Part shown: piece by piece, positions 2,460-44,780 of the stretch
Position numbering within the stretch: the stretch's first letter is position 1
Layout of the letters: every line of letters begins with the position of its first letter
Notes under the pieces: generated by a model
Seen by the model: only the letters and a program-made list of their open reading frames with translations
What the model was told of the DNA's origin: nothing
Databases searched by the model: none
Position numbers and translations under genes: made by a program
Assembly (NCBI RefSeq): GCF_053078305.1
Contig: NZ_CP166879.1
DNA length: 64,000 bases
Strand: one strand, 5' to 3'

Positions 2460-2616
2460 TTTGATACCGACAAGGGTTTTAGTGAAAGGAGGTGAAATCA
2501 CCTGTAAGATACTGAAATAAAACAGGTGATCGATGATTCTGGAGGTTGTTTAGTTTTGATACTGATTAAATAAAATCCGGTATAAAATTAAGGTATCGGC
2601 AACAAATTTGATACTG
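2460..2616. repeat. left-end transposase-binding repeats (attL-like), copies of GATAC(C/T)G / CGGTATC
   Basis: Seen at 2460-2470, 2555-2566, 2592-2599 (inverted) and 2607-2616; same motif clustered at the right end. Confidence 0.6.
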
Positions 2617-2747
2617 CACATACTGCTTATGGACGTTTTTAAAAGTACTTAAAATGTCTTTTATGCTAAAAAGTTTATATCAATATCGATCTGGTCACAA
2701 ATCAAGTTGAAAGTGCTCGCTAAGTGCATAGCCTGGGCTTCATGGGG

Positions 2748-3266
2748 TTACGCTTTGGCTTCTTTATGGGTTAAATTGAAATGATGCTCCTTGGTTTCAT
2801 CTCCCTCGAAAATCTCTCTAACCTTTTGATCTGATAAATTATTAAGGCTCAATGCTGCCAGGCGTCGAATACCTGTTAAAGCGATCAACTCTTGATTCTC
2901 TTGATTGCAGAATTCCAGCAATTTTTCTACCCCTTTCCTTCTCAAGGTGTAAATAACTAATTCTTGCTCTTCTTGGCTCAAAGTGTCGATGAGTTCGAGC
3001 AACTCGCTATTGCCACCGTTCTTTTGAGGGGGCTGGTGTTTTATTTCTGCACTACCTGTAATGATGGAAACAACATGTGCAGGTAAGTCGCTTAAACGGT
3101 AGGCAAATGCTCTCCCTCTGATACCAGGTGTAGTTACCGAACGTTTTTCCCATCCTTCATTTTTTGCTCGTTTATGAAGCCCAGCCAGAGATGAAGGAAG
3201 ACCTCCAACCCCCAACAAGTCACTGGCAAGGATCCATTCTTGGTCAAGGATCATATCAAACTCCAT
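2748..3266 (-). CDS. Mu c-like repressor
   Basis: Leftward 172 aa ORF at the left end; its N-terminal motif DLxGxGGLPSSLAGLHKRAKNEGW is shared with the transposase N-terminus (DLPSSLAGLHKKAKREAW), as in Mu c and A. Confidence 0.75.
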   Translation of the reverse strand: MEFDMILDQEWILASDLLGVGGLPSSLAGLHKRAKNEGWEKRSVTTPGIRGRAFAYRLSDLPAHVVSIITGSAEIKHQPPQKNGGNSELLELIDTLSQEEQELVIYTLRRKGVEKLLEFCNQENQELIALTGIRRLAALSLNNLSDQKVREIFEGDETKEHHFNLTHKEAKA

Positions 3267-3483
3267 TTGATATTAACTTTTGTTTATATCTTTTATGCGG
3301 TTTATTTCAAAAATAACTCAATAAAAAACAAATAGATACAGAGCAAATTTAAAAATTTGAAATTAACCAGTTGATATTTACTAAGTTAATATCTAACATA
3401 TCAAACATACACTAGTGAGTAACTCAATAGAGTAGCACACATGAGTAATAAAGTTTGCCATAGAAAGTACACAGGGGGCCATT
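3267..3483. promoter_or_regulatory. divergent early promoter/operator region between repressor and ner
   Basis: AT-rich 217 bp intergenic region with reiterated TTGATAT(T)TAC / TTAATATCTAAC / ATATCAAAC half-sites. Confidence 0.5.
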
Positions 3484-3729
3484 GTGAGTCTTATTGAAGA
3501 TTGGTCTTCCGCCGATATAAAGGCAGCCTTAGAAAAACGCGATACCAATTTGTCACGTTTATCAAGGGAAAATAATTTGCAGCCTAGGACTTTGGGTAAT
3601 GCTTTGCGAGTTCCCTACCCTAAAGGTGAAAAGATAATTGCTAGGGCTATAGGTGTAGAGCCACAGGTTATTTGGCCTACTAGATATGAACGACGTGCGC
3701 GGAGGAAATATGTGGGTTGCAATGACTGA
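3484..3729 (+). CDS. ner: Ner-like DNA-binding regulator
   Basis: 81 aa ORF resembling recalled Mu Ner (…LSRLSR…TLGNAL…PKGEKIIA…EPQVIWPTRY), first rightward gene. Confidence 0.8.
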   Translation: MSLIEDWSSADIKAALEKRDTNLSRLSRENNLQPRTLGNALRVPYPKGEKIIARAIGVEPQVIWPTRYERRARRKYVGCND

Positions 3730-5794
3730 ATTGATTTCATTCAGTGACCTACCTAGTTCTTTGGCAGGTCTGCACAAAAAAGCAAAGAGGGAAGCGTGGA
3801 AAACGCGGCTAAAACCAGGGGTAAAAGGGAAAGTTTTAGAGTGTGAAATAGGAGCTTTGCCTTTAACTGTTCAGCAGGCAGTACGCGAACGCCATGCCCT
3901 GCAACTGATGACGCAAAAAGCCGATGAATCACCGGCTCCGGTGGTGACAAAGGCCAGACGCTCACCTGCCGTGGTTGATGCGGTGGAGGCATATCGCGGA
4001 TCACCCCAACTGATGGTCGAACGCCTCAATGCCCTGACTGAAAATCAGCGCCAGGTGGCTGATGCACGAATCGCGATCGTCAGCGAAGTTCTGAAAGTCG
4101 CGCAACAACCTGGTTTCAGCTGTGCGAAGGCTATCCGGTTTATCGTTGACAACCTGGCACGTTCGCAGTTGGACGAGCGCATTGTGGCAATGGTTGAGAC
4201 GGCGAACGCCAAAAAGGGAAACAGCCGCGCGTTAAGTGAAATCACGCTGAAACGCTGGATTGCGGCCTTTAACAAGGCGCAGAACGCCGCTGAACGCCTG
4301 CTTTTACTGGCACCGGGTAAGCGCCAGGAAATAAAAGCCGAAGATATTAACTGGCTGCCCGAATTTCTGGCGCAGTATCGCCAGTCAAACGGCCGACCAA
4401 TGACCGAGGCTTACGAGGATTTTGTCGCTGAATGGCAGCACCGGCACGCCGATGAGCCTTATATGCTCGATATCATGCCGTCTTATGACACCATTCGCCG
4501 CGCAATGAAGAAACTGCCGGAAGTGGTGAAACAAAAAGGCCGGGTGACCGGCAGTGAATACCGCCAGCTTGAGGGATTCACGCGCCGCGACTGGTCAAAA
4601 ATGCCGGTGAATTATGTCTGGATTGGTGACGGTCACGGCATGAAGCTGAAATGCGCACACCCGGTTCACGGTCGGCCATTTGCACCGGAAGTGACCTTTG
4701 TTATCGACGGTGGCACGCGCTTTGTGGTGGGCTGGAGCCTTGACCTGGCTGAAAATGTTTTCGCCGTAGCCGGTGCCATACAGCACGGCATTCGCCATCA
4801 CGGCAAACCGTTTCTGTATTACTCGGATAACGGCTCCGGGGAAACCGCCGACATCCTGGATAAGGAGGTTGTGGGGATACTGCCGCGACTGGGGATTAAT
4901 CACCCGACCGGGATTGCCGGTAATCCGCAGGGACGAGGCATTATCGAACGGCTTAACCGCACATTACCGATGCGCATAGCCCGTAAATACCGCACCTATT
5001 TCGGGAAAGGTGCAGATCGCGAGACGTTACGCAAAACCAACCGCGATTTACGCTCGGCATTTACTGCCCTGCAACAGGGCAAACGGCTGAACGCCCGGCA
5101 GCAGTCAGCGATGCGTGATTTACCGTCCTGGTCTGAACTGATTGATGCCATTCGTGACGGTGTTGAGTGGTACAACAACCGGCCGCACGATGAATTACCG
5201 GTGAAGCCGAACGGCAAGCATTACAGCCCGGCGGAGTTCAGAAAAAAACGCCTGGCGGAAGAGGACACGGAAATTGAATGGCTGTCCGATGTTGAGCTGC
5301 GGGATATGTTCCGGCCGATGGTGGAACGCCCTGTAAGACGCTGTGAAATACGCTGGCTGAATAATATTTACTACGCGCCCGAGCTGCGTGACGAGCATGG
5401 TCGTAAGGTGCTTATCAGCTATGACATTCATGATGCCGAACGAATTACCGTACGTCGCCTGGATGGCAGCGTGATTTGCGAGGCGGTATGGGACGGTAAT
5501 AAACGCGAAGCCTTCCCGGTTAGCGCGGAATACTACAAACAGCAGCAACGCCTTAAAGGCATGCGTAAACGCGCAGAGGAAAAAATCCGTGATGCCGAGG
5601 ATGAGGTTGTCAACGTGCTGGAGCACAAGCCGCAGGAGCCCTGGCTGGAAAACATATACCGCCCTGTGGGTAATACGGTGACCGTTCAGCAACCGGTCGC
5701 TGACGATGAACCTGATGAAGAATACGAGCGTAATTTCCAGCGGGGATTGCAGTTGCTGGAAGCGAAATTAAAAGAAAATGACCCGCTGGCCTGA
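3710..5794 (+). CDS. Mu-type DDE transposase A
   Basis: ~700 aa ORF with repressor-like N-terminal DNA-binding domain; GGAGG at 3701-3705 favours the ATG at 3710 over the in-frame ATG at 3686. Confidence 0.85.
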   Translation: MWVAMTELISFSDLPSSLAGLHKKAKREAWKTRLKPGVKGKVLECEIGALPLTVQQAVRERHALQLMTQKADESPAPVVTKARRSPAVVDAVEAYRGSPQLMVERLNALTENQRQVADARIAIVSEVLKVAQQPGFSCAKAIRFIVDNLARSQLDERIVAMVETANAKKGNSRALSEITLKRWIAAFNKAQNAAERLLLLAPGKRQEIKAEDINWLPEFLAQYRQSNGRPMTEAYEDFVAEWQHRHADEPYMLDIMPSYDTIRRAMKKLPEVVKQKGRVTGSEYRQLEGFTRRDWSKMPVNYVWIGDGHGMKLKCAHPVHGRPFAPEVTFVIDGGTRFVVGWSLDLAENVFAVAGAIQHGIRHHGKPFLYYSDNGSGETADILDKEVVGILPRLGINHPTGIAGNPQGRGIIERLNRTLPMRIARKYRTYFGKGADRETLRKTNRDLRSAFTALQQGKRLNARQQSAMRDLPSWSELIDAIRDGVEWYNNRPHDELPVKPNGKHYSPAEFRKKRLAEEDTEIEWLSDVELRDMFRPMVERPVRRCEIRWLNNIYYAPELRDEHGRKVLISYDIHDAERITVRRLDGSVICEAVWDGNKREAFPVSAEYYKQQQRLKGMRKRAEEKIRDAEDEVVNVLEHKPQEPWLENIYRPVGNTVTVQQPVADDEPDEEYERNFQRGLQLLEAKLKENDPLA

Positions 5795-7366: not shown

Positions 7367-7573
7367 TTGCCGATAGTTGCCGGAAAGCCTGCCACGGTAC
7401 GGCATGTGATTGAGGTTATGGCGCGTCATGGACGTGATGAACAGGAGCAGTTACTGGTTCCGGGGATACCGGAAGCGGTGACGGAGGAAGAAGCCTTTAA
7501 TGCCATGATTCGGTTCTGCCGTGAGGTCAGACGCCGGGTCAGTTATCCAAACAGAACGAGGACCAGAGGATGA
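7367..7573 (+). CDS. hypothetical early-region protein
   Basis: 68 aa ORF, stop overlaps next start. Confidence 0.35.
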   Translation: MPIVAGKPATVRHVIEVMARHGRDEQEQLLVPGIPEAVTEEEAFNAMIRFCREVRRRVSYPNRTRTRG

Positions 7574-7842
7574 GTAAAGTCGTACGCATTATTTTCGAAT
7601 ACAAGGAGCACGTTATCCATAAAAACGCGGATGGAACAGTGCGCATGGGGATAAGTCTGGACATACGTTCAACCGGGATAAAGCAGAAAGGTGATGGACC
7701 TGCCATGATTTTTGGGGTGGTTATGCTCGCGGAAAGCAGAGACTTTGCTGAACTTGTGGCAATGAAAGCCAGTGCGCTCATGAAAGATATGAGCATGCGT
7801 TCCGGGGTTATTAAAGGTAATGAATTTAATCAGCAGGGGTAA
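7570..7842 (+). CDS. hypothetical small protein, tandem paralog 1
   Basis: 90 aa; N-terminus MSKVVRIIFEYKEHV parallels the next ORF. Confidence 0.45.
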   Translation: MSKVVRIIFEYKEHVIHKNADGTVRMGISLDIRSTGIKQKGDGPAMIFGVVMLAESRDFAELVAMKASALMKDMSMRSGVIKGNEFNQQG

Positions 7843-7846
7843 TTCC

Positions 7847-8140
7847 ATGAGCAAAGTACGCGTTATTTTTGAATTTAAGCATGTTTCGCATGACGAAAAA
7901 CCGGCAGGCAATGACTGTGTTGAAGTGCATGAAAAGATTGGTGTGGATGTAAAAACAGAACGTGATACGAATAACAGGCCGACGTCACTCTGTGACGTTT
8001 ATGTAAGTATTCTCCAGTATCACAGTCCTGAAATTATTCAGTTTCTCTCAGCGGAATTTCAGGCATCTGTACAGGCTTTTGGGGCGGATGCCATCATTAA
8101 ACGCCACCGCGTGCATAAAGCATCAGGCACACTGCAATAA
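7847..8140 (+). CDS. hypothetical small protein, tandem paralog 2
   Basis: Starts MSKVRVIFEFKHV at the ATG at 7847 (ORF track start 7820 is further upstream in frame). Confidence 0.45.
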   Translation: MSKVRVIFEFKHVSHDEKPAGNDCVEVHEKIGVDVKTERDTNNRPTSLCDVYVSILQYHSPEIIQFLSAEFQASVQAFGADAIIKRHRVHKASGTLQ

Positions 8141-10377: not shown

Positions 10378-10929
10378 ATGATGATTTTACAACCCATGGG
10401 GCGAAAAGGTCAGGCACCTGCTCATGTCCGTGCGTGGACACCTGAAGAAGATGCGCTGCTGATTGCGCTTTATCCATCCACCCCGGTTAAGGATATTGCT
10501 GTCAGGGTAAAAAGAAGTTTCTGGGGTGTACATAACCGGATTGTTTTATTACGCGGTACTTACCCGGAGTTGCTCAAATGCAAACGTCCAAGATTTAAAC
10601 ATGATGAAGATAAATTTATCCGAAAAAATGCCAGAACGATGACCGGTAAGCAAATAGGAGAATATCTGGGGCGAGACCGGGATTCTGTCCACAATCGGGC
10701 GCGATATATTGGCGTAAGCATGAAAAAATACGGAGAATTGCTGCCCTTCACCCGTATACCTGACGATGATGTTCATCTTATTCGTGAATTACGGGATGCT
10801 GAATCACCACGACGTCTTACCTTCCGGGAAATAGGCGAGAAATTTGAATTATCCGAGAGTACGGTGAATTTTATTTATCACCATCGCCGGACTGCCGAGG
10901 ACGCTGTATTACGGGAGTTAACGCCATGA
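10378..10929 (+). CDS. hypothetical protein with three helix-turn-helix-like repeats
   Basis: 183 aa; three similar ~45 aa segments with an acidic turn then basic helix (PEEDALLIALY…, KHDEDKFIRKNA…, IPDDDVHLIREL…). Confidence 0.4.
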   Translation: MMILQPMGRKGQAPAHVRAWTPEEDALLIALYPSTPVKDIAVRVKRSFWGVHNRIVLLRGTYPELLKCKRPRFKHDEDKFIRKNARTMTGKQIGEYLGRDRDSVHNRARYIGVSMKKYGELLPFTRIPDDDVHLIRELRDAESPRRLTFREIGEKFELSESTVNFIYHHRRTAEDAVLRELTP

Positions 10930-11111
10930 TAAAGAGACTTGTATTTTTCGCAATTTTCGTTCCGGTGTTGGGGGTTGGTTTTATATTTGCGATTACAGGA
11001 AACCTGTCCATGATGCCAGATATTTGGTTCTTTATCAGGATGTCGCTCTTCCTGTTTATTATGAATCTTCTTATCGACATATATATCCGTATTACTGGAA
11101 AACATAAATGA
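10926..11111 (+). CDS. small hydrophobic membrane protein
   Basis: 61 aa, two hydrophobic stretches, AT-rich, start overlaps previous stop. Confidence 0.4.
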   Translation: MIKRLVFFAIFVPVLGVGFIFAITGNLSMMPDIWFFIRMSLFLFIMNLLIDIYIRITGKHK

Positions 11112-11482
11112 GAAAAATCACGTCCTTGTCAGAGTTACAGGAGATGAATATGAGTATTGAATTAAGATCGTCTTATGAGTATCGCAAATTTCTTATCGCC
11201 GGAGGCATGAAACCGGAAGATGTGGAAAAAATCGTTTCTTTTATGGATAAGGAATGTGACAAGCGGGATGTGTCAGAAATTATTATGGATGACATGATTC
11301 TGGATTCAGTCGTGGCGTTAAGTCCGTTATGGATTGTGCATTCTCTTGCGGAAATTGCCAAAGGCACCGATAAACAGGCAGCTGTTGCTGCCCTTCAGAC
11401 GCTTAATGAAATGCGTATATCTCCACGCCCGACATTAATACAGATGATTTTGTCCAGTATGGAGGATAAAGCAAATGAATAG
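11108..11482 (+). CDS. hypothetical protein
   Basis: 124 aa, ATGA overlap with previous gene. Confidence 0.4.
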   Translation: MRKITSLSELQEMNMSIELRSSYEYRKFLIAGGMKPEDVEKIVSFMDKECDKRDVSEIIMDDMILDSVVALSPLWIVHSLAEIAKGTDKQAAVAALQTLNEMRISPRPTLIQMILSSMEDKANE

Positions 11483-11672
11483 TCTACCCGCTGGATGGGC
11501 GCGCCCTCTGATGGCTAAGAAGCATCATTTTTTTAAAACTGGCGATAATATCAGTATATGTAGGCGGTGGTTATATCTGGCTCATAATCGCGAGCCGGAT
11601 ACATTTGAAAGCCCTGATGACTGTGCCGAATGTCGCAGAAGACTGAATAAGGAGAAAGATAATGGACAGTAG
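11475..11672 (+). CDS. hypothetical small Cys-containing protein
   Basis: 65 aa with C…C-x2-C spacing (possible zinc ribbon); overlaps neighbours. Confidence 0.35.
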   Translation: MNSLPAGWARPLMAKKHHFFKTGDNISICRRWLYLAHNREPDTFESPDDCAECRRRLNKEKDNGQ

Positions 11673-11958
11673 TTCGCAGTTGTTCTGGTGTTTATATATC
11701 ACATCGTTTTTCGGTGCATTCGTCATTACACGATGGCTGTGCCGGAAAGTTATCAGTATTTTTCATAAAAAATACCTGATTGGGCTGGCGGCGACTTCTC
11801 TGATTAATGCACTTGCCAGATATCATAAGGGGGAATACTACTCAAGAATAAAAACTGATGATGGTTTTAATATTTTTGTGATTCCTCCGGAGTATCGGGT
11901 TCAGCTCGATCGGGAAAGTAATATCTATCATATCAGCAGGAGTGTTGATACAGCATGA
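11662..11958 (+). CDS. hypothetical membrane-anchored protein
   Basis: 98 aa with N-terminal hydrophobic segment; overlaps neighbours. Confidence 0.4.
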   Translation: MDSSSQLFWCLYITSFFGAFVITRWLCRKVISIFHKKYLIGLAATSLINALARYHKGEYYSRIKTDDGFNIFVIPPEYRVQLDRESNIYHISRSVDTA

Positions 11959-12464
11959 GAGGGAAACTGATATCCGCTATTCATGTGGCAAAGCGCGAGC
12001 TTGCCCTGGATGATGAGACCTACACATTCGTACTACTGGCAGCCACCGGCAAAACCAGTTGCCGGGATATGTCACCGGATGAGTTATCCCGCGTGCTGGA
12101 TGTTTTCAAAAAACGCGGTTTTAAAGTGCGTCAGAAACCGGTTAACCGGGCCTTAAAACCGGGTACGGTGACCGCCAAAATTCGCGCCATCTGGAAAGTG
12201 ATGCACTGGCAGGGCTTTATCTCTGATGGTGCGGAAACCGCTCTTAACCGCTGGGTGAAATCGCAGACGGCCGCGCAGAACGGCGGCGAAGGTGTGGCAA
12301 ACTGGCAGTGGCTGGAGCAACACCCCGCCCTGGCCTCAGATGTGCTGGAGCGTCTCAAGCGATGGCACCGCCGCAAAATGCTGGCCGCGATGGGAATGCC
12401 CGAACGCACGCTGATGGGGTATGACGCCGTTTGCAGGCAGTATGAAAAATCACTTCCCCGTTAA
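11955..12464 (+). CDS. GemA-like (Mu gp16-like) protein
   Basis: 169 aa; N-terminus …LISAIHVAKRELALDDETY… resembles the Mu gp16/GemA family as I recall it; sits just upstream of the Mor/C activator. Confidence 0.55.
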   Translation: MRGKLISAIHVAKRELALDDETYTFVLLAATGKTSCRDMSPDELSRVLDVFKKRGFKVRQKPVNRALKPGTVTAKIRAIWKVMHWQGFISDGAETALNRWVKSQTAAQNGGEGVANWQWLEQHPALASDVLERLKRWHRRKMLAAMGMPERTLMGYDAVCRQYEKSLPR

Positions 12465-12533
12465 CCCCAAATCCCGCCACAACGCGGGATTTTTATTTTA
12501 AACTTACCGGGAACGCGAGAACCGGAGGCTGAT

Positions 12534-13030: not shown

Positions 13031-13531
13031 ATGCCAAAACTCCCCGCACCACTGCGTAAAAAGCTGATTGCCCTTGTTCTGGCCGGTGCCGGGACGTTCA
13101 CGATTGCCACGCATTACACCGGTTACTGGGAAGGGAAAGAAAACTCCACGTATATCGATCCCACCGGTACACCCACCATCTGTTACGGCCATACCGGCCC
13201 GGATGTGAAACCGGGTATGACCCTGACGGATGAAGAATGCCTGGAACTACTGGAAAAGGACATGAAATGGGCCTTTGCGGCCATTGATCGGCGTGTTCAG
13301 GTGCCGCTTACCCGTGGTCAGACGGTGGCGCTGGCTTCGTGGATCTTCTGGGCCGGTGAAACGAACTTTCGCAACTCCACGCTTCTGCGCCTGATCAATG
13401 CCGGGCAGATGCCCGCGTCCTGTAAGCAGTATATCCGCTGGATTTATTCAAAGGGGGTGAAGCTCCCCGGCCTTGAGGCCCGCCGTTCGGCGGATGAATG
13501 GTTATGTCGCTACGATTTGCCGAAAGTCTGA
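13031..13531 (+). CDS. SAR-type endolysin (phage lysozyme)
   Basis: 166 aa with N-terminal hydrophobic anchor and lysozyme motif GYWEG…TICYGHT. Confidence 0.8.
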   Translation: MPKLPAPLRKKLIALVLAGAGTFTIATHYTGYWEGKENSTYIDPTGTPTICYGHTGPDVKPGMTLTDEECLELLEKDMKWAFAAIDRRVQVPLTRGQTVALASWIFWAGETNFRNSTLLRLINAGQMPASCKQYIRWIYSKGVKLPGLEARRSADEWLCRYDLPKV

Positions 13532-15012: not shown

Positions 15013-15594
15013 ATGGACAAGCCGACGCGTGGTCGTGTACGCAAGGTGGATTTGCTCCCCGACAGCATCCGTAAGCCGCTGCTGGAAATGCTGCGTGAAA
15101 AACGTCTGACGCAGGTCCAGATCCGCGAGGAAATCAACCGTCTGATCCGTGAGGCGGGCCTGCCGGAAGAGCAGCAGCTTTCACCGGCGGCCATCAGCCG
15201 GGAAGCCTCCCGTAATGAGCTGATTGCCCGTAACCTGCGTGATTTACGCGAGCAGACAAAAGCCATGATGGCCGAACTGGGGGACAAGCCAACCGGTGAA
15301 ACCACAGCGCTGATTCTGGAAATGTCCCGCGCCCTGATGTACCGCCGCCTGCGTGCCGCGACCGAATCTCTGAACAGCGACAGCGACGTGGATATGCGCC
15401 TCATCAAAGACATCCTCCTGTCAGCACAGCGTGCGGAAAGTGCCGCCGAGCGCAGCATTAAGCGTGAAAAAGAAATCCGGGCCGCATTTGCTGAAGAGAT
15501 GGCAAACGCGGTCACCGACGAGCTGCGCGGCGTGGATGGCATGAGCGAGCAGATAGAATTTCGTATCAGGCAGATGCTGCTGGGTAAAGCGTAG
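15013..15594 (+). CDS. putative terminase small subunit (Mu gp27-like)
   Basis: 193 aa basic/helical protein directly upstream of the large terminase. Confidence 0.6.
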   Translation: MDKPTRGRVRKVDLLPDSIRKPLLEMLREKRLTQVQIREEINRLIREAGLPEEQQLSPAAISREASRNELIARNLRDLREQTKAMMAELGDKPTGETTALILEMSRALMYRRLRAATESLNSDSDVDMRLIKDILLSAQRAESAAERSIKREKEIRAAFAEEMANAVTDELRGVDGMSEQIEFRIRQMLLGKA

Positions 15595-15604
15595 GAGGTG
15601 AATC

Positions 15605-15853
15605 ATGGCAACAGATAACCGCTCACTGATGATCTGTGCCCATCAGAAGGCATTCAGTCTTGCAACACAGTTACCTCCTGAAACCATAAAAGTGTGTCGT
15701 GAGTTGACTGAACTCTGCATTGCCGGGGAAATCTCCCTGAAACAACTGCATTCGCTGCTGGCAGAGGCTGTCACTGATGAATTGAGCAGCGTGGACGTGA
15801 TGACTGAAGAGCTTGAGTCCCGAATCAGGGGCATTCTGACAGGTAAAGCATGA
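15605..15853 (+). CDS. hypothetical protein, paralog of the small-terminase C-terminus
   Basis: 82 aa; C-terminus AVTDELSSVDVMTEELESRIRGILTGKA parallels AVTDELRGVDGMSEQIEFRIRQMLLGKA of the preceding gene. Confidence 0.4.
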   Translation: MATDNRSLMICAHQKAFSLATQLPPETIKVCRELTELCIAGEISLKQLHSLLAEAVTDELSSVDVMTEELESRIRGILTGKA

Positions 15854-19106: not shown

Positions 19107-20415
19107 TTTAGGTTATGCCGCCACGCTTCCCTCAAAAGAGGCGGTGGCATACTTCCGCGCCAAAGGGGCGCATATCAGCTGGAACTGGTTCGAAACAGAC
19201 GCGGATGTTCATGCCCGTTCATTCACGGCGGCAAAAGTGGCACGCCTGGACGTACTGACCACACTACAGGCGGAAGTGCAGCGTGCTGTTGATGAGGGGA
19301 TTTCACAGAAAGCATTTATCCGCACACTGACACCCCGCCTGCAAAAGCTGGGATGGTGGGGAAAGCAGATTGTGGTGGACAGTGCCGGTAACGCGGAAGA
19401 AGTGCAGCTGGGCAGCCCCCGCCGTCTGGCGCTGATTTACAACGTGAACACCCGCGTGGCTTACAATGCCGGGCGTTACACGCAGATGATGAACAACACG
19501 GACACGCATCCGTTCTGGCAGTATGTAGCGGTGATGGACAGCCGCACCCGCCCGGCGCATTCCGCCCTTAACGGGCTGGTATTCCGCTATGACGATCCGT
19601 TCTGGAATACACACTACCCACCCAATGGCTGGAACTGCCGCTGCCGTGTCCGGCCATTGTCTCAGGCCCGTCTGGATGCAATGGGGTTATCCGTTTCATC
19701 CGGTCAGGATCATCTTTCCACCCGCAATGTTGAGGCTGGCGTGGATAAGCAGACCGGAGAAGTCAGAGAAATGCCGGTGACCACATATTCAGATGGCACC
19801 AGAACCATGACACCGGATGTGGGCTGGTCATATAACCCCGGTTCGGCGGCGTTCGGCACAGACCAGGCGCTGATCCGCAAGCTGATCGAAGTGAAAAGCC
19901 CGGCGTTACGGGAAATGGTGGTTCAGGAGATGAACAACAGCCCGGAGCGGCAGCTGGCGTTCCGCATCTGGGCAAAAAACATCATGAAAACCCGGCGAGG
20001 CGGTAACGATATCCGCACGCTGGGCTTTATGACCGAAAGTATTGCGCAGGCGGTGGAAAGCCGGACGGGAACGCCACCGGCCCGCCTGCTGGCGATGAGC
20101 GGTAAAAATGTGCTCCATGCGGACAGCGTGAAACATCAGAATGACGGTATCGCCCTGACGCCGGAGGATTTCGCGCAGCTTCCCGCCATGCTGGCTTCCC
20201 CCGATGCCGTGCTGTGGGATCATGTCCATCAGAACCTGCTTTACATCACTGAAACCCGTGACGGAACGGCAAAGATTGCCGTCAATGCGCCTTATGGTGT
20301 GAAGCGCCAGCCGGATAAGCTGGATGTGGTAATTAATGCTTACCGGGTAAATAAATTTGATATTGAAAAAGCAATAGAGGGCGGAAAGCTGGAACTACTG
20401 GAAGGTAAATTGTAA
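19090..20415 (+). CDS. Mu F-like head morphogenesis protein
   Basis: 441 aa ORF in the expected position after portal. Confidence 0.75.
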   Translation: MAQGIDLGYAATLPSKEAVAYFRAKGAHISWNWFETDADVHARSFTAAKVARLDVLTTLQAEVQRAVDEGISQKAFIRTLTPRLQKLGWWGKQIVVDSAGNAEEVQLGSPRRLALIYNVNTRVAYNAGRYTQMMNNTDTHPFWQYVAVMDSRTRPAHSALNGLVFRYDDPFWNTHYPPNGWNCRCRVRPLSQARLDAMGLSVSSGQDHLSTRNVEAGVDKQTGEVREMPVTTYSDGTRTMTPDVGWSYNPGSAAFGTDQALIRKLIEVKSPALREMVVQEMNNSPERQLAFRIWAKNIMKTRRGGNDIRTLGFMTESIAQAVESRTGTPPARLLAMSGKNVLHADSVKHQNDGIALTPEDFAQLPAMLASPDAVLWDHVHQNLLYITETRDGTAKIAVNAPYGVKRQPDKLDVVINAYRVNKFDIEKAIEGGKLELLEGKL

Positions 20416-33002: not shown

Positions 33003-34084
33003 TGCCTTATCAGCCCTTACCACTGGCGCAACTGATCACACAGACACAACAGGATATCAGCCAGCGCCTGCCCGGTTCGCAGCCGGGCGTGAATGAAACC
33101 ACCCTGAATGCCATTGCGTATGCACTGGCGGGTCTGTCAGCACAGGAGCATGAACATCTGGCCTGGATCTCCCGGCAGATAATTCCGACAGAAGCTGATG
33201 AAGCCGAACTCCTGAAACACTGCGCATTCTGGGGTGTCATCCGTAAACCGGCTTCCCGCGCTGACGGACCGGTACAACTGATGCTGACCACGGATGCAGG
33301 GATCACGGAAGGCGTACTCCTTCAGCGAAGCGATGGTGTTGTGTACCGCATCACCGGCTCTGCGACCGGAAAAGCCGGAACACTGAATGTTAATGTGGAG
33401 GCGGAAAGTGCGGGGCGCGCTGGAAATACCCCGACCGGAACCCGCCTGTCCTTTATCACGCCACAGGCGGGCATCAACCAGACAGCCACGGTCACCGGCA
33501 CGGGACTCACCGGTGGTGCGGATGTGGAAACGGTGCCGGAGTTGCTGTCCAGGCTGGTATTCCGGGTACAGAACCCGCCATCAGGGGGAACACAGTATGA
33601 TTTTGAACGCTGGGCACGGGAAGTACCGGGCGTGACGCGGGCATGGTGTAAGCCTGAATGGCCTGAGGCGGGTAGTGTTGGTGTGACTTTTGTTCAGGAT
33701 AATAACCCTGACATTTTCCCCGGAGAAGGTGATGTGAAGCGGGTGGCGGATTATATCCGCAGTCATGATGATCCGGCGACGGGCCAGCCCGTTGGTCAGC
33801 CACTTGGGCCGACAATCAGCGTGTTTAAGCTGACCAATAAGTCGGTGGCGTTTGAGATCAGGATTGTACCCAAAACGCCGGAAAATCAGGCTGCCGTAAA
33901 ACAGGCATTAACGGACCTGCTTTATAACGAATCGCGGCCGGGTGGACTTGTATTGCCTTCATCATTCTGGCGGGCTGTTGCAGGGGTGAAAGGACTGGAG
34001 GATTTTGAAGTTCGCAGTCCGCTGAAGTCCGTGATGGCCGGAGATACAGAGTTGCTGACCGTGGGGGAAATCACATGGCTGTAA
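32999..34084 (+). CDS. baseplate J-like protein (Mu gp47-like)
   Basis: 361 aa ORF. Confidence 0.7.
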   Translation: MMPYQPLPLAQLITQTQQDISQRLPGSQPGVNETTLNAIAYALAGLSAQEHEHLAWISRQIIPTEADEAELLKHCAFWGVIRKPASRADGPVQLMLTTDAGITEGVLLQRSDGVVYRITGSATGKAGTLNVNVEAESAGRAGNTPTGTRLSFITPQAGINQTATVTGTGLTGGADVETVPELLSRLVFRVQNPPSGGTQYDFERWAREVPGVTRAWCKPEWPEAGSVGVTFVQDNNPDIFPGEGDVKRVADYIRSHDDPATGQPVGQPLGPTISVFKLTNKSVAFEIRIVPKTPENQAAVKQALTDLLYNESRPGGLVLPSSFWRAVAGVKGLEDFEVRSPLKSVMAGDTELLTVGEITWL

Positions 34085-34632
34085 CCCTGACCCCGCATCA
34101 GCGCGCCCTGTTGCAGTTGCTGCCTGACGGGCTGGCATGGGATAAGCGGCCGTCATCCGTTCTTGCAGCTTTGTGCCTGGGCCTCAGTCATTCCACGGAG
34201 CGTGTTTCCTGGACCGGTAACCAGATGCTGGCAGAACGTTTTCCTGATTCATCCCGTCTGCTGCTGGAAGACTGGGAGCGTTATCTGGGGTTGCCGGAAT
34301 GTGATATGACCGGCGCAACCATTCAGGAACGTCAGCGTTATGCCGGGAATAAATACCGGATGAAACCCTCTCTTAACCGTGAATTTTATATCCGGTTTGC
34401 GGCTGAGTTTGGTTATGAAATAGATATCCAGCCATCACCGGAATCACAATGGATCAGTATTGTGACAGTGAAGACGGCGGTGGGATACCGTCACATGAAT
34501 GTACTGGACGATATTCTTACACCACTGCGAATTTATGATGCAAGTGCGCTGGAGTGCATTTTAAACCGTTATAAGCCAGCCTGGCAGACGTTTTTATATC
34601 TGTACGAAAACAGTCATGAGGAGACGGAGTAA
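34075..34632 (+). CDS. tail protein (Mu gp48-like)
   Basis: 185 aa ORF directly upstream of the tail fibre. Confidence 0.6.
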   Translation: MAVTLTPHQRALLQLLPDGLAWDKRPSSVLAALCLGLSHSTERVSWTGNQMLAERFPDSSRLLLEDWERYLGLPECDMTGATIQERQRYAGNKYRMKPSLNREFYIRFAAEFGYEIDIQPSPESQWISIVTVKTAVGYRHMNVLDDILTPLRIYDASALECILNRYKPAWQTFLYLYENSHEETE

Positions 34633-35543
34633 TGTATTTTGTCGACAACAATTCAGGTGTGACCGATATGCCACCACTGGCCCCCTCTCAGGGTACGCAG
34701 GTTAAATGGTTTACTGAAGGTGACGGACGCAAAGGGATCAGCCATATCGGTCAGGACTGGCTGAACATCGTGCAGGCAGAGCTGCTTGCCATTCTGACAG
34801 AAGGAAAGGTTCAGCCGGATAAGGCAAAACTGAACCAGCTGGTGACAGCCATTAAGGCAATCATTGCAGCAAACGCATACAGCCGGAAAAACAACCTTAA
34901 GGAGATTGCGGATGCAGGTGCAGAAGCACAGGCTGCTGCCCGCCGTCATCTGGGGCTGGGAGGATTATCAGGAAAAGACAGTCTGGCTGCTGCTGATGTG
35001 GGAGCACTGGAGAAATCCCGGAATTTTGACGATGTACCGGATAAACCGACGGCCCGCCTGAATCTTGATGTTTACAGTAAGGGAGAAGGCGATGAGCGTT
35101 ATCTGCGCAGGGACCAGAATGGCGCGGATATCCCGGACAAAGGAACCTTTATCGATAACCTCGGTTTACGGGAAACGGTAAATAAGGCTGCTGATGCCCT
35201 GCCATCGGGTGGAACCGCCGTGGCAGCGAATAAACTCGCCACCCCAGTAAATATTAATGGCGTTCCTTTCGACGGAACGCAGGATATCAACATCACGTCA
35301 GGAATGACGCAGTCAACCGCAGATGGCCGGTATGTACAGAATGTTCAGCTTGGAGCACAGAGCTATCATTCACCCGGAGGCAATGAAATGTCATGGAATT
35401 ACAGCGCACCTTCCGGTTGTATGCTTTCCGGTATTAACGTGCAGGAAACCGGCTCCCGGTCTGCGGACAATATCGGTGGGGTCTATTATCGCCCGGTTCA
35501 GATTTATATTAATAATGCCTGGAGAACGGTAAGTTCAGTGTAA
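34632..35543 (+). CDS. tail fibre protein (constant part plus current variable C-terminus)
   Basis: 303 aa; its 3' third overlaps the left inverted repeat of the invertible segment, and its C-terminal ~75 aa are homologous to the inverted fragment at 36179-36400. Confidence 0.75.
   Translation: MYFVDNNSGVTDMPPLAPSQGTQVKWFTEGDGRKGISHIGQDWLNIVQAELLAILTEGKVQPDKAKLNQLVTAIKAIIAANAYSRKNNLKEIADAGAEAQAAARRHLGLGGLSGKDSLAAADVGALEKSRNFDDVPDKPTARLNLDVYSKGEGDERYLRRDQNGADIPDKGTFIDNLGLRETVNKAADALPSGGTAVAANKLATPVNINGVPFDGTQDINITSGMTQSTADGRYVQNVQLGAQSYHSPGGNEMSWNYSAPSGCMLSGINVQETGSRSADNIGGVYYRPVQIYINNAWRTVSSV
35157..35300. repeat. left inverted repeat of tail-fibre invertible segment
   Basis: Perfect 144 bp inverted copy of 36399-36542, checked base by base. 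Confidence 0.85.
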
Positions 35544-35577
35544 ACCACAGAAAAGGGTGCTGAATGCACCCTCTGAA

Positions 35578-36099
35578 TTATTCCGGTTTTTCCGGCCAGG
35601 GAATCGCCTGGTAATGCCCCTCACTGGCAATATCATTAAAGTGCATTTCTTTAAGCTGTCGGATATACGCCATCCAGCGCGTCAGCTGTAATTTATTTTC
35701 ATCGCTAATCATGTCCAGTTTTAATTCCGTTTTCCAGTCATCCACAGTTTCGTTGGCTTCCTGGAGCAGCGATGAGCGGCGCTTTTCAGCAACCGTCTTC
35801 CAGTTTACCGGCACCTTTGATATCAGGCCATCAGAAAACTGCCAGTTACCGTCAATATCCACACCTTCCGGCAGTTCGTCCACTTCAACAACAGTAAAAC
35901 CTGCCGGATATAAAGCAGAGACATCTTCAGCAACAGAGCAGATAATACCCGTTACAGGCGAAATACAGAGTTTGTATTTCTTTGTGAAAAGCGGGAGAGA
36001 TTCATAAAAATCCCTTCCGTCCTCACTCTGGAAATACTGAACATCCTCACCATAGGGTTTGTGTTCCGGGTAATATCGTTTTACGTTAATAAGCTCCAT
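35578..36099 (-). CDS. tail fibre assembly chaperone (U'-like)
   Basis: 173 aa from the ATG at 36099 with AGGTG SD; C-terminal …ISDENKLQLTRWMAYIRQL…PWPEKPE matches the Tfa/U family. Confidence 0.75.
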   Translation of the reverse strand: MELINVKRYYPEHKPYGEDVQYFQSEDGRDFYESLPLFTKKYKLCISPVTGIICSVAEDVSALYPAGFTVVEVDELPEGVDIDGNWQFSDGLISKVPVNWKTVAEKRRSSLLQEANETVDDWKTELKLDMISDENKLQLTRWMAYIRQLKEMHFNDIASEGHYQAIPWPEKPE

Positions 36100-36178
36100 T
36101 ATTTCACCTTGTTTTTGTTGAAAAGACAAAATCATCATATATTTATTCAGATAATCTGTTTTTTGAACTACTGCACTT

Positions 36179-36542
36179 TTATGCGCTGGAAGCTGTTTTC
36201 CACGAACCATTTATCAGAAACTGAACAGGGCGATAATATGCGGTTACCGTTGCATTACCATCACCAGCGACATCAAGCCCTGTAAGTACGCATCCGTCAG
36301 GAACTTCAAAAATATTATATTGCATTCCAATCGTTGACCTTGAACCTCTTCGAATGCTTTGAACATAACGTGAGTCAGCCACAGACTGCGTCATCCCCGA
36401 TGTAATATTGATATCCTGCGTTCCGTCGAAAGGAACGCCATTAATATTTACTGGGGTGGCGAGTTTATTCGCTGCCACGGCGGTTCCACCCGATGGCAGG
36501 GCATCAGCAGCCTTATTTACCGTTTCCCGTAAACCGAGGTTT
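36179..36542 (-). other. alternative tail-fibre variable C-terminal segment (promoterless, usable after inversion)
   Basis: Reverse-strand coding segment homologous to the C-terminus of 34632-35543 (AANKLATPVNINGVPFDGTQDINITSGMTQS…YYRPVQ…), ending at the stop at 36179. Confidence 0.65.
36399..36542. repeat. right inverted repeat of tail-fibre invertible segment
   Basis: Perfect reverse complement of 35157-35300. Confidence 0.85.
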
Positions 36543-36603
36543 CAGGGATGTCGTATATCTGCTTTAAAAGGCATTTTCACCTCTTTTTAAGGAAGGTAAA
36601 TAC

Positions 36604-37164
36604 ATGCTGATTGGCTATATACGCGTATCAACAAATGACCAGAACACAGGTTTACAAAGAAATGCGCTGGAATGTGCAGGATGTAAGCTGATTTTTGAAG
36701 ATAAAATGAGCGGAAAAACAACGCAGCGGCCGGGACTGAAGCGGGCACTGAAGAAACTAAAACCCGGTGACACGCTGATGGTCTGGAAACTGGACAGGCT
36801 GGGGCGCAGTATGCGCCACCTTGTTGCGCTGACAGATGAATTACAGCAACAGGGGATAAATTTTCGTAGTCTTACTGACAACATTGATACGTCAACCCCC
36901 ATGGGGCGCTTCTTTTTTCACATAATGGGTGCGCTGGCAGAAATGGAGCGTGAATTGATTGTCGAACGGACACGGGCTGGTCTTGCAGCTGCCCGTGAAA
37001 GGGGACGAACCGGTGGCAGACCCCGTCGTCTCACGCAGGAACAATACGAGCAGGTCGGGCGTTTACTGGCCGGGGGTGTCAGCCGAAGACAGGTGGCACT
37101 TATTTTTGATATCGGCCTTTCAACCCTTTATCGTTATTATCCTGCAAGCATTTCGGAAAAATAA
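36604..37164 (+). CDS. gin: Gin/Hin/Pin-family serine DNA invertase
   Basis: 186 aa starting MLIGYIRVSTNDQ… with resolvase catalytic domain and C-terminal HTH, adjacent to the inverted repeats. Confidence 0.9.
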   Translation: MLIGYIRVSTNDQNTGLQRNALECAGCKLIFEDKMSGKTTQRPGLKRALKKLKPGDTLMVWKLDRLGRSMRHLVALTDELQQQGINFRSLTDNIDTSTPMGRFFFHIMGALAEMERELIVERTRAGLAAARERGRTGGRPRRLTQEQYEQVGRLLAGGVSRRQVALIFDIGLSTLYRYYPASISEK

Positions 37165-37254
37165 GACGCTCCCTTTGTTGGGCCTTTACTGAATTAACGC
37201 AAAATGGCGTTTATCGGTCTGTGGATATGATAATTCTGTTTATTCAGGAACAGG

Positions 37255-39312: not shown

Positions 39313-39584
39313 TCGTGACGGCCGGGAATTTATCCGGCTGTAACATCAGTTAATAAGAGTGAGGCTTATATGACATATATAAACGTCTGCCTGCTGTATT
39401 TCTGCACGGTGGTTTGTTGTCTGTTGCTTGTCAGCGGTGGTTATAAAATTATTCGCAATTATTTTCGAAATAAAATTGATGCAGCTGCCGAGGAAAAGAT
39501 AAAAAGCGGTGCTGTAATGCCGCAGCCGAAAGACTCCGGTCAGATTTAATTTTTTGTGAACCAGAAAAGGAAAGGAGAATATTC

Positions 39585-39830
39585 ATGCCAGAGATTAAAG
39601 GCACGGTTACTGAAGAGCTTGTCAAACAGGCACTTTATTCTGAAGAAGTGAACCGCGTGCTGAAGGCGCAGGTTCGCAAGGATTTTGAGGCACAAATCGA
39701 CGCATATGTTGATGAAGTGCTGGCCCGAATGGTTGGCCATTCTCCGGCTGAAAACAGCACGGAGAATGAGCCTCAGCCCGTAGAGCAACCAGAGCCGGTT
39801 CAGCCCGGAACTGACAGTGCCATGATGTAA
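39585..39830 (+). CDS. hypothetical small acidic protein
   Basis: 81 aa ORF with strong SD AAAGGAAAGGAG upstream. Confidence 0.4.
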   Translation: MPEIKGTVTEELVKQALYSEEVNRVLKAQVRKDFEAQIDAYVDEVLARMVGHSPAENSTENEPQPVEQPEPVQPGTDSAMM

Positions 39831-39904
39831 CAATACAAACCGACAGCTTCTCCTGTCGGTTTGATTTTCATGGGCGATGTATATACCAGTCAGAGGAAAT
39901 AATC

Positions 39905-40105
39905 ATGGACAAGAACAAAAAGCAGCCCGATACCAAAGGTCTGGAAATATTAAGCGCAGAAATTATCAATGCGCTACGTTCAGGACTTGATGAAAATACA
40001 TTACAGGATCGAAACTTCACCACTGCAATGTGGATAGCGATGCAGATCCTGTGTACCCCAAGATGCGCTATTTTTGCGGTTCGTGAGGGTCAGTTGACTC
40101 GCTGA
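39905..40105 (+). CDS. hypothetical small protein
   Basis: 66 aa ORF, weak support. Confidence 0.3.
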   Translation: MDKNKKQPDTKGLEILSAEIINALRSGLDENTLQDRNFTTAMWIAMQILCTPRCAIFAVREGQLTR

Positions 40106-40298
40106 TTGCCCGAATTACATCAGAAAAGCACGCGTTCCATAATTGCATAGCTGATGAATCACCAGCTGTATGAAAAGAGGTAAAGACACAACTGGTGGAT
40201 GTCATTGCTGCAATTGTGATATCAGCTGCAATTCGCGCAGCCTGTAACTTTTGGTCGGTGGTCAGTTTATCCATTTTCTCCTGCCTGAACAGATGCAT
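40068..40298 (-). CDS. hypothetical small protein
   Basis: 76 aa ORF on the opposite strand overlapping the previous ORF; only one of the two is likely real. Confidence 0.25.
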   Translation of the reverse strand: MHLFRQEKMDKLTTDQKLQAARIAADITIAAMTSTSCVFTSFHTAGDSSAMQLWNACFSDVIRAISESTDPHEPQK

Positions 40299-40529
40299 CT
40301 CTGCTTTACAGGAGGCCGGGGAATATCATAGGATACACCACGAGCTCAGAGTGAAGCATTGATGCAGTTTTTTACAGATTGACCCAGAATAGTTCGCGCT
40401 ATCTGAGTCGCCATTTATGTAGTCCCGAAGTAAAGCATTGATGCAAACTTGTCTAAATCGGCCCAGCATAGTTCCAGCTATGCTGGGTTTCCCTTTTATG
40501 TAGTATCCTGTTGATTTGAAACATACTAC

Positions 40530-41652: not shown

Positions 41653-41710
41653 GCGCTTAAAAACTCATTCTAAAACTCAAAAGAAAAGCGCCGATTTAGT
41701 ATCAAATAAG

Positions 41711-44693: not shown

Positions 44694-44738
44694 ATGAAAG
44701 CAATTTTCGTACTGAAAGGTTGGTGGCGCACTTCCTGA
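44694..44738 (+). CDS. trpL: trp leader peptide
   Basis: [14 protein letters not shown] with tandem Trp codons. Confidence 0.95.
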
Positions 44739-44780
44739 AACGGGCAGTGTATTCACCATGCGTAAAGCAATCAGATACCC

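Follow-up and report, generated by a model that had tools for sequence, protein, structure and literature searches.

Four small genes in a variable, probably accessory slot of the early operon of an Sp18-type Escherichia coli prophage

The window analysed here, a 64,000 nt stretch of contig NZ_CP166879.1 (assembly GCF_053078305.1), contains an Sp18-type, Mu-like prophage of E. coli that extends from approximately position 2443 to 41780. The order of its genes (A, B, gam, a slot of small genes, gemA, mor and lysozyme) parallels that of Mu and SfMu, with the slot forming the distal end of the early, or semi-essential, operon. The four genes in question, here termed O1 to O4, all lie on the + strand between gam and gemA, at 10926-11111 (O1, 61 aa), 11108-11482 (O2, 124 aa as first called), 11475-11672 (O3, 65 aa) and 11662-11958 (O4, 98 aa), in agreement with the placement in the Mu semi-essential region proposed by an earlier, sequence-only reading. 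To their left, also on the + strand, is a gene encoding a 183 aa Myb/SANT-like DNA-binding protein (10378-10929), which matches phrog_323 ('transcriptional regulator, D5-like'; E=6e-59) and is annotated in RefSeq as either 'DNA-binding protein' or 'SANT/Myb-like DNA-binding domain-containing protein'. As it was found in all the variant loci examined, it represents the conserved left anchor of the slot; the conserved right anchor is gemA (11955-12464, + strand), annotated as a 'gp16 family protein' in RefSeq and belonging to phrog_286. Directly 3' of gemA is a terminator-like hairpin (12469-12492, + strand), having a 9 bp stem with five GC pairs and a T run, which is likely to be either the 3' boundary or an attenuation point of the transcript containing O1 to O4.

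The second gene most likely starts at the ATG at position 11150, rather than at 11108, which would shorten the encoded protein to 110 aa (11150-11482). This is the start chosen by RefSeq/PGAP, and both the profile of the PHROG family to which O2 belongs and all the O2 homologues begin at the same point. The sequence AGGAG (11139-11143) is found 6 nt upstream of this ATG, and in those relatives in which O1 has been replaced, homology to the window begins only around position 11137 (position 212 of the query). With the start at 11150, the chain of overlapping reading frames is interrupted by a 38 nt spacer (11112-11149, + strand), within which this Shine-Dalgarno sequence lies. The four open reading frames do share a strand, as originally described, but they are probably not all chained together by overlapping stop and start codons, the junction of O1 and O2 being a gap. 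From the Myb/SANT-like gene through to gemA, the successive junctions are a 4 nt overlap, the 38 nt spacer, and overlaps of 8 nt, 11 nt and 4 nt. O1 starts in an ATGA overlap with the preceding gene, with GGGAG 8 nt upstream, and each of the four genes is preceded by its own Shine-Dalgarno sequence. Since the annotation has close-packed or overlapping junctions throughout the whole early operon, O1 to O4 are not singled out by theirs.

A scan for promoter and terminator consensus sequences gave counts at or below those expected by chance, as judged from shuffled sequences. No promoter-like site was detected on the + strand upstream of the four genes, the sole such site lying within O2 (11256-11283; nine of 12 positions matching), and no terminator-like site was detected inside the block, the only strong hairpin being that after gemA; as the promoter scan covered sigma-70 consensus sites only, this constitutes weak evidence. 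The region has no match to Rfam models, and no tRNA according to ARAGORN.

The composition of the slot is quite different from that of most of the prophage. The 1 kb bin spanning 11001-12000 has a GC content of 0.413, against 0.55-0.60 for the bins covering 12001-34000, and the individual values for O1 to O4 are 0.355, 0.411, 0.449 and 0.401, the phage backbone having 0.55-0.59. At third codon positions, the GC content of the four genes is 0.40-0.44, compared with 0.624 in gemA, 0.57-0.66 in sampled late genes and 0.55-0.66 in the backbone. These comparisons substantiate the earlier statement that the genes are AT-rich relative to the flanking phage DNA on one side only: backbone values return at gemA, but the low GC tract begins one gene earlier, within the Myb/SANT-like gene (third position GC content 0.397). 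O1 to O4 look horizontally acquired. They are genuine protein coding genes. Comparison with three diverged relatives gives dN/dS ratios of 0.07-0.26, indicative of purifying selection, with an excess of differences at third codon positions and zero internal stop codons, and the reading frames remain intact in relatives that differ at up to about 20-30% of synonymous sites.

O1 encodes a basic protein (pI 10.4) with two hydrophobic segments, residues 1-30 and 32-58, where hydropathy windows are 1.6 or higher; it is predicted to form a two-helix hairpin in the inner membrane. Its dN/dS is 0.20-0.26, its homologues occur only in the E. coli prophage lineage to which the window's copy belongs, and its match to a PHROG family is weak (phrog_19804, 1e-5). 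O4, also basic, has an N terminal hydrophobic anchor at approximately residues 6-24, followed by a C terminal domain of about 70 aa; it matches phrog_17269 with an E value of 9e-66, and is found in E. coli only, confined to this prophage lineage. It exists as two alleles of equal length that are 51% identical, the N terminus being conserved and the C terminus diverged, with the breakpoint at position 11770 of the window (845 of the query). Between the window's allele, O4a, and the O157 type, O4b, dS is saturated and dN/dS is approximately 0.14. By hydropathy, the N terminal segment of the O157 allele exceeds the threshold, whereas that of the window's allele does not reach it. Hence, where two membrane proteins had been predicted, O1 has two clear segments, but O4 has a single segment that is sub-threshold in the allele present here. 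Searches of PDB sequences with O1 and O4 returned only chance matches to transmembrane segments. If O4 is tethered to the membrane, the positive-inside rule suggests that its polymorphic domain would probably be cytoplasmic.

The product of O2 is acidic (pI 4.8) and predicted to be all-helical, and matches phrog_1988 (E=5e-44) over residues 15-123 of the 124 aa form. Its homologues include gp14 of SfMu (37% identity) and proteins of the Yersinia vB_YpM phages (36-38% identity), and the family is small, with only 11 matches among 1.8 billion representatives. It is confined to the early regions of Mu-like phages, where homologues are found one to three genes upstream of gemA, and its dN/dS is 0.14-0.18. 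AF2 models the protein as helical, but with low confidence (pLDDT 60); a sequence-profile search of the PDB with O2 was null, and a Pfam scan of every member of the O2 alignment gave no significant match. As the confinement to transposable phages suggests, O2 may be an acidic helical protein tied to the Mu-type lifestyle.

The protein encoded by O3, which is basic, belongs to a widespread family. It aligns with positions 4-67 of the 146 in the phrog_2358 profile (E=3e-33), implying an extra segment in some members of that family, and homologues fall into at least 120 clusters (123 were found), all encoding proteins of 44-126 aa, mostly 55-80 aa, and none having a Pfam domain. The longer members have only unannotated N or C terminal extensions, which give no hint as to function. 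The family extends across Mu-like, lambdoid and phage-plasmid-like elements and virulent Pseudomonas Pbunaviruses, homologues including gp85 of Pbunavirus 14-1, gp34 of Sf11 and a protein of Sa179lw; O3 is also found in a Citrobacter element, and alone beside gemA in a Salmonella Mu-like prophage. A screen of Pbunavirus early ORFans found few growth-inhibitory proteins, and does not mention the O3 homologue (PMC8085984). The 88 aligned sequences share G7, W8, H18, C50 and C53 without exception, and K16, S27, C29 and W32 are each kept in at least 90% of them; dN/dS is 0.07-0.11. The C...CxxC arrangement noted from the sequence is therefore real, and falls within a conserved H18/C29/C50/C53 set. 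These four Cys/His residues, conserved across the 88 homologues as would be expected of the ligands of a zinc-ribbon or treble-clef mini-domain, form a putative single zinc site. The AF2 model (pLDDT 89) consists of short strands and then a C terminal helix.

Neither O3 nor any of the 88 family members matched a Pfam HMM. The closest structural resemblance is to AlphaFold models of DUF3565 (Foldseek E=2.5e-3, TM 0.70, 35% identity), with a very weak Foldseek match to DUF3039 as well; both of these domains are themselves uncharacterised, and the O3 family matches the Pfam HMM of neither. Apart from the weak DUF3565 match, fold searches of AFDB50 and BFVD with the O3 model returned uncharacterised relatives only. 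A weak sequence signal for the Kunitz/BPTI domain recurred, but was not backed by the fold searches; O3 lacks the six conserved cysteines in three disulphides, and the fold, of that domain, and the signal is attributed to a chance pattern of cysteine and aromatic residues. O3 would be a compact, probably zinc-stabilised protein with conserved basic residues, which most likely binds a host macromolecule, whether protein or nucleic acid.

Searching 5426 complete E. coli genomes revealed 220 that match the region, the matches corresponding to positions 1-1033, 1-845, 212-1033 or 212-845 of the query. There are five arrangements between the conserved Myb-like gene and gemA. Some carry the alternative O4 allele (as at locus L002); at L003, two unrelated genes take the place of O1; in strain M1, the slot contains just a DUF551-like gene and O4b; and at L018, an IS5-family element (ISKpn26) is found where O2 to O4 would be. 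The 38 nt spacer between O1 and O2 is itself a recombination breakpoint among these relatives. Across 16 loci of the lineage in IMG/VR, O1 is missing from four, and both O4a and O4b are found at loci with O1 and at loci without it. O2 and O3, by contrast, are adjacent in every member of the lineage that has either one, and this constant adjacency means that a pairwise interaction between them may exist. Elsewhere, SfMu-type phages carry O2 but neither O3 nor O4, and at 37 of the 53 O3-bearing IMG/VR loci, none of O1, O2 and O4 is found within 4 kb; the surroundings of the eight of these with inspected flanks (L036, L038-L040, L050, L053, L061 and L070) are mostly lambdoid, of replication or nin-like type. 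The slot thus consists of non-homologous short open reading frames lying between syntenic flanks, with a GC content that deviates from the backbone.

We consider that O1 to O4 are real genes that probably fill a recombination-prone accessory slot, bounded by the Myb/SANT-like gene and gemA, in the distal early operon of an Sp18-type prophage. The sequence-only reading had instead seen an undescribed module, and were the four genes to constitute one co-functional, translationally coupled cassette, acquired as a unit and devoted for example to anti-defence, exclusion or host takeover, this would account for their being contiguous on one strand with a low GC content in common, for the overlaps at three of the four junctions, and for the presence of the full set in many E. 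coli genomes and 12 of the 16 lineage loci. We regard this as improbable, however, because the taxonomic range differs gene by gene. The four do not travel together outside a single E. coli lineage, and within it, O1 presence and O4 allele assort freely, so that neither co-occurrence nor synteny is maintained across divergent lineages; O3 mostly occurs alone, SfMu-type phages have O2 only, O4b is found without O1 to O3 in M1, and O1 can be replaced, with recombination breakpoints falling between or inside the genes. The overlapping junctions are an operon-wide feature, broken here by the probable gap between O1 and O2, and nothing in PADLOC-DB matched. These distributions indicate that the four genes are inherited independently, and do not form one functional module. 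A still less credible proposal is that some or all of them are open reading frames that arose by chance in AT-rich spacer DNA. They are small, lack matches in Pfam and NCBIfam and, in the case of O1, have only a weak PHROG match, but all four exhibit purifying selection and the third position excess, the frames are kept in relatives and follow Shine-Dalgarno sequences, distant homologues of O2 and O3 retain their length, and AT-rich DNA makes long open reading frames less likely to arise by chance.

Two further readings ascribe particular roles to these genes. Exclusion proteins are commonly membrane proteins, such as Imm of T4 and SieA of P22, and with two of the products being predicted membrane proteins, a composition unlike that of the neighbouring genes, and a presence that varies among related prophages, O1 to O4 might be morons, or lysogenic conversion genes, acting for instance to exclude superinfecting phages. 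Such genes would have their own promoter and terminator, neither of which was detected by the consensus scan; instead, the block forms part of a lytic early operon and overlaps its neighbours on either side, the Myb/SANT-like gene and gemA, and we think it unlikely that it has this role. Slighter again is the chance that O1, possibly with O4, is a holin- or pinholin-like protein timing lysis for the downstream lysozyme, which would be of the signal-anchor type. Class II holins are small, span the membrane twice and end in a charged C terminus; at 61 aa, with two hydrophobic segments and the C terminal sequence RITGKHK, O1 resembles them, and the lysozyme (13031-13531) has a hydrophobic N terminus. 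However, rather than being in a late lysis cassette beside the endolysin, O1 is in the early operon, upstream of gemA and mor and around 1.9 kb before the lysozyme, with the terminator-like hairpin in between. A holin made early would kill, related prophages with the same lysis genes have O1 absent or replaced, and no holin family matched O1.

The preferred reading, that of an accessory slot, can be set beside several known systems. The semi-essential region of Mu and SfMu (kil to gemA; gp5-gp16 in Mu) occupies the corresponding position and follows the same operon plan, its genes being small, closely packed and for the most part without known function, and gp14 of SfMu is a true homologue of O2. 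Mu itself, in contrast, has no homologue of O1 to O4: the equivalent place is held by gp14 and the Cys-rich, 60 aa gp13, which are unrelated. A tblastn search of 50,697 phage records, including NC_000929, produced no Mu hit for any of the four, and hhalign comparisons of the O2 profile with Mu gp14 and the O3 profile with Mu gp13 gave probabilities of less than 1%, which discounts these similarly positioned proteins as relatives and accords with the earlier view that the four are not Mu core proteins. Nor is the set altogether undescribed. All are 'hypothetical proteins' in RefSeq, and O2, O3 and O4 are clear members of established PHROG families (phrog_1988, phrog_2358 and phrog_17269), so they have been catalogued; but these families are listed as of 'unknown function', and none of the libraries searched assigns a function. 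There was no significant match for O1 to O4 in Pfam or NCBIfam, and none in PADLOC-DB even at E<=1, although its models cover defence systems rather than anti-defence proteins; no anti-defence protein was among the results of the Pfam, NCBIfam, PDB sequence and fold searches. A literature search found no paper citing the RefSeq protein accessions, the PHROG identifiers or DUF3565.

The closest parallel comes from the Mu-like phages of Pseudomonas aeruginosa, in which short accessory open reading frames of 34-100 codons occupy fixed slots in otherwise syntenic genomes (Cazares et al. 2014, PMC4378225). Most of those slots are found in the left, early arm, and many fall in GC valleys; their content changes from one close relative to the next, and its function is mostly unknown. 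The slot in the window shares all of these properties, and is best read as an enterobacterial counterpart of the low GC regions of genomic plasticity, although it belongs to a different host genus and phage lineage and has no gene in common with them. In the Pseudomonas phages, regions of genomic plasticity F and G are the GC valley slots, and G is the anti-CRISPR slot (PMC4378225); no anti-defence activity is known or detectable in the slot of the window. Lambdoid morons (the Juhala/Hendrix concept, as described in PMC4378225) likewise consist of extra DNA whose composition deviates and which some related phages have and others lack, but O1 to O4 lie inside a lytic early operon with no promoter or terminator of their own detected, rather than being autonomous units.

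On this basis, the early promoter would drive transcription of O1 to O4 upon induction or infection, and the four would act as separate, non-essential early proteins dealing with the host, not as parts of one machine. We infer both the early expression and the dispensability from gene order together with the natural variants. The variants used in this respect may include defective prophages. The individual roles suggested for the four proteins are drawn from composition, hydropathy and conserved residues only.

For annotation, the gain is a corrected start for O2 and the description of this stretch as an accessory slot, not an operon-like module. Beyond the leads offered by O3 and O4, the region is as expected for the semi-essential region of a Mu-like phage, and the slot is a fairly ordinary one. 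O3 is a tractable target, being a compact, confidently modelled and probably zinc-binding family with neither a Pfam entry nor a literature, and its members turn up in the early regions of widely differing phages. Broadly shared early proteins of phages have often proved to be host-takeover or anti-defence factors. The two-allele polymorphism of O4 is a second, smaller lead. A bolder proposal, about which we are doubtful, is that O3 represents a widespread, unnamed His-Cys3 zinc-binding early family targeting a conserved host factor or defence system, and that the two O4 alleles result from an arms race waged at the inner membrane, for instance through allele-specific exclusion or counter-defence. 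If this were true, the slot would amount to a hitherto unrecognised hotspot for anti-defence or takeover functions in the transposable phages of enterobacteria.

The four genes, here termed O1 to O4, belong to a Mu-like E. coli prophage of about 39 kb (approximately 2443-41780 of the window); its boundaries were set by comparing it with the copy that strain STEC2017-197 carries at another chromosomal site. That copy sits within a DUF4224 gene belonging to a second prophage, close to yccA, and the copy in the window adjoins the trp operon (Trp leader, 44715-44808); occupation of different chromosomal sites is expected of a transposing phage. The early genes run in the order repressor, ner-like gene, transposase A, B, several small genes and gam, followed by three genes whose products are each around 175 aa long, a Myb/SANT-like DNA-binding gene (10378-10929), O1 to O4 and gemA (gp16 family), and then by mor, lysozyme and the late genes. 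Hence O1 to O4 lie at the distal end of the Mu-type early, or 'semi-essential', region. A gemA-mor query found this type of prophage in around 230 out of 5426 complete E. coli genomes, and in 220 of them the four-gene block is matched in whole or in part; STEC strains, O157:H7 included, commonly carry the prophage. We infer that it is of the Sp18 type of O157 Sakai, and Sp18 is reported to be intact and efficiently packaged (PMC2669165).

An ORF listing confirmed the four frames where the sequence-only reading had placed them, all on the + strand: O1 at 10926-11111 (61 aa), O2, in the longer 124 aa form then proposed, at 11108-11482, O3 at 11475-11672 (65 aa) and O4 at 11662-11958 (98 aa). However, on sequence grounds O2 almost certainly starts at the ATG at 11150, giving a 110 aa product, as this is the start annotated by RefSeq in a genome 99.9% identical, the O2 PHROG profile and all O2 homologues begin there, an AGGAG motif lies 6 nt 5' of it, and the nucleotide homology of relatives in which O1 is replaced sets in at around 11137, downstream of the ATG at 11108. 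The suggested chain of overlapping stop and start codons therefore survives at O2/O3 (8 nt overlap) and O3/O4 (11 nt), but not at O1/O2, where there is a 38 nt spacer. Overlaps of 4 nt join O1 to the upstream gene and O4 to gemA, and each of the four starts has its own Shine-Dalgarno sequence. Such tight spacing is usual throughout the early operon, so these junctions do not mark the four genes as a unit.

All four frames are open in three diverged relatives of the window prophage (the O157-type loci L002/L031, and loci L003 and L026), and their differences from the window pile up at third codon positions. The dN/dS ratios are 0.20-0.26 for O1, 0.14-0.18 for O2 and 0.07-0.11 for O3, and around 0.14 between the two alleles of O4, where dS is saturated. 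These are genuine genes; the possibility that they are spurious ORFs is excluded by this signature of selection.

The claim that the block is more AT-rich than the flanking phage DNA is borne out by comparison with the rest of the prophage: GC content is 0.413 in the 1 kb bin at 11001-12000, against 0.55-0.60 in the bins covering 12001-34000, with values of 0.355, 0.411, 0.449 and 0.401 for O1 to O4 respectively, and GC3 is 0.40-0.44 in these genes, against 0.62 in gemA and 0.57-0.66 in the late genes sampled. The low-GC tract already starts in the preceding Myb/SANT-like gene (GC3 0.397). Upstream of gam, at 7570-8140, are two more small early genes of low GC (GC3 0.48 and 0.38), assigned to the function-unknown families phrog_4107 and phrog_2230, which are possibly a further accessory slot.

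Several other parts of the prophage are variable. The immunity region at 2530-3872, a low-GC bin (0.41-0.43) that comprises the ner-like gene and, on the - strand, a repressor-like gene, is unmatched by megablast in the STEC2017-197 prophage, which is otherwise 98.7% identical; this looks like an immunity-module swap. At 15589-15759, between a gp27-family gene and the next large gene, lies an indel of around 170-260 bp relative to STEC2017-197; two relatives (L017 and L019) have an extra gene for an 82 aa hypothetical protein at this spot, making it another variable slot. The right arm (35000-41700) is low in GC (0.44-0.49), encodes a 685 aa DUF6645 protein (37255-39312), and ends in a Com-family gene and a 245 aa gene (40915-41652). 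The segment at 33307-35304 is only around 79% identical to STEC2017-197, a 161 bp stretch is inverted relative to that genome, and tail-fibre genes and a frameshifted recombinase are annotated nearby in it, suggesting an invertible host-range segment. RefSeq also marks a 'tRNA-OTHER' in locus L001 (18239-18318, equivalent to around 20164-20243 of the window, - strand), with the minor head protein gene on one side and the virion morphogenesis gene on the other; ARAGORN detected no tRNA in the whole window, and Rfam had no match at this position.

At least five arrangements of the slot, which is bounded by the Myb-like gene and gemA, occur in the E. coli lineage. In the window it contains O1-O2-O3-O4a, and in O157 strain FRIK2533 O1-O2-O3-O4b, where O4a and O4b denote the window and O157-type alleles. 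A third arrangement has unrelated phrog_6925 and phrog_6158 genes in place of O1, followed by O2-O3-O4a, and in strain M1 a phrog_6925 gene is directly followed by O4b, without O1 to O3. In the fifth, from E. coli S1-CAM-01-A, an IS5-family element (ISKpn26; 3333-4313 of locus L018) occupies the position of O2 to O4, showing that the slot tolerates disruption, at least in a resident prophage. Megablast matches to the block fall into four coverage classes (query positions 1-1033, 1-845, 212-1033 and 212-845), from which breakpoints map to the O1/O2 spacer and to a point within O4, just past its anchor. The phrog_6925 gene that replaces O1 (3324-3635 in L003, 3868-4200 in L019) encodes 103-110 aa ending in '...THWCHISALPE', which we take to be reminiscent of DUF551 proteins.

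Beyond this lineage the genes part company. A scan of IMG/VR for relatives of O3, with neighbouring genes identified by local tblastn, gave 53 loci, 16 of which represent the lineage of the window prophage: these all have O2, O4 and gemA, 12 have O1, and the presence or absence of O1 occurs in all four combinations with O4a and O4b. The other 37 have no O1, O2 or O4 within 4 kb, and the flanks of eight of them are mostly lambdoid-type replication or nin-like neighbourhoods. O3 also occurs alone, directly 5' of gemA, in a Salmonella Mu-like prophage. Further carriers of O3 are a phage-plasmid-like element from Citrobacter, another Mu-like phage of E. coli, virulent Pbunaviruses of Pseudomonas, and the phages Sf11 (Shigella) and Sa179lw (Escherichia). 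SfMu-type phages have O2 without O3 or O4. Each gene is hence an independently circulating unit. The proposal that the four form one co-functional module is contradicted by these varying arrangements and differing distributions, though a pairwise relationship of O2 and O3 is conceivable within the lineage, as the two are adjacent wherever either occurs.

None of the proteins has a match in Pfam, NCBIfam or PADLOC, and the expectation that they are not Mu core proteins stands, as none has a homologue in phage Mu; Mu gp13 (Cys-rich, 60 aa) and gp14, in the equivalent position, are unrelated. O1 is basic, with two strongly hydrophobic segments, and has homologues in this prophage lineage only; it may form a small inner-membrane hairpin. 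O2, an acidic protein (pI 4.8), is all-helical in its predicted structure, albeit a model of low confidence (pLDDT 60). Its tiny family (11 matches in 1.8 billion cluster representatives), which includes SfMu gp14 and proteins of Yersinia vB_YpM phages, shares the motif LSPxWI..L..IA.G.DK.AAVAAL and is limited to Mu-like early regions, one to three genes 5' of gemA; such a protein would be specific to the Mu lifestyle. O4, known from E. coli only, carries a hydrophobic anchor at its N-terminus, followed by a C-terminal part of around 70 residues. Its two alleles, identical in length and 51% identical overall, conserve the anchor and diverge in the C-terminal domain, which, in a membrane-tethered protein, would probably be cytoplasmic by the positive-inside rule.

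The O3 family comprises 123 clusters (E<=1e-3), nearly all of standalone proteins of 55-80 aa, with no Pfam domain or annotation in any. Across 88 diverse members G7, W8, H18, C50 and C53 are invariant and K16, S27, C29 and W32 at least 90% conserved, and the AlphaFold model (pLDDT 89) has short strands followed by a C-terminal helix. The conserved residues indicate one His-Cys3 metal site together with a basic surface that is likewise conserved; O3 might be stabilised by zinc and bind a host protein or nucleic acid. The family repeatedly showed a weak, sub-threshold likeness to Kunitz/BPTI domains, with a PDB profile match at E=1.4e-3 and Pfam Kunitz_BPTI matches at E<=0.1 in 10 of the 88 aligned members; the fold search did not support it, and it is rejected as probably a convergence of Cys/aromatic pattern.

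Most likely the block is a slot for accessory genes within the early operon of a transposable phage; horizontal acquisition would have filled it and recombination shuffled its contents, and its genes are probably expressed on induction, together with the early genes. Lysogenic-conversion morons are less likely, given the embedding of O1 to O4 in that operon and, as weaker evidence, a consensus scan in which promoter-like and terminator-like sites were no more frequent than chance; apparently lacking such signals of their own, the genes are not classical morons. Rfam likewise had no match in this region. The one strong terminator-like hairpin (12469-12492; 9 bp stem and T run) lies directly 3' of gemA, between it and mor, which are contiguous in Mu; this is an indication that early transcription stops, or is attenuated, short of mor. 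A holin would suit the size and topology of O1, but neither its early position nor its absence from relatives with the same lysis genes. The Mu semi-essential region is dispensable; this and the natural variants suggest that O1 to O4 may be so too.

Accessory slots are a known kind of feature in the early regions of Mu-like phages, and the sequences are already in the databases, as RefSeq hypothetical proteins and PHROGs families of unknown function; a literature search found no mention of the proteins. The slot is an enterobacterial counterpart of the low-GC 'regions of genomic plasticity' of Pseudomonas Mu-like phages, which contain ORFs of 34-100 codons, mostly of unknown function, and one of which holds anti-CRISPRs (PMC4378225). 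It is rather unlikely that O3 or O4 is a host-takeover or anti-defence factor. The O3 family, probably zinc-binding to judge from its conserved residues, is of most interest, being broad, compact, confidently modelled, present in very different phages and uncharacterised, with the two-allele polymorphism of O4 a second, smaller lead.
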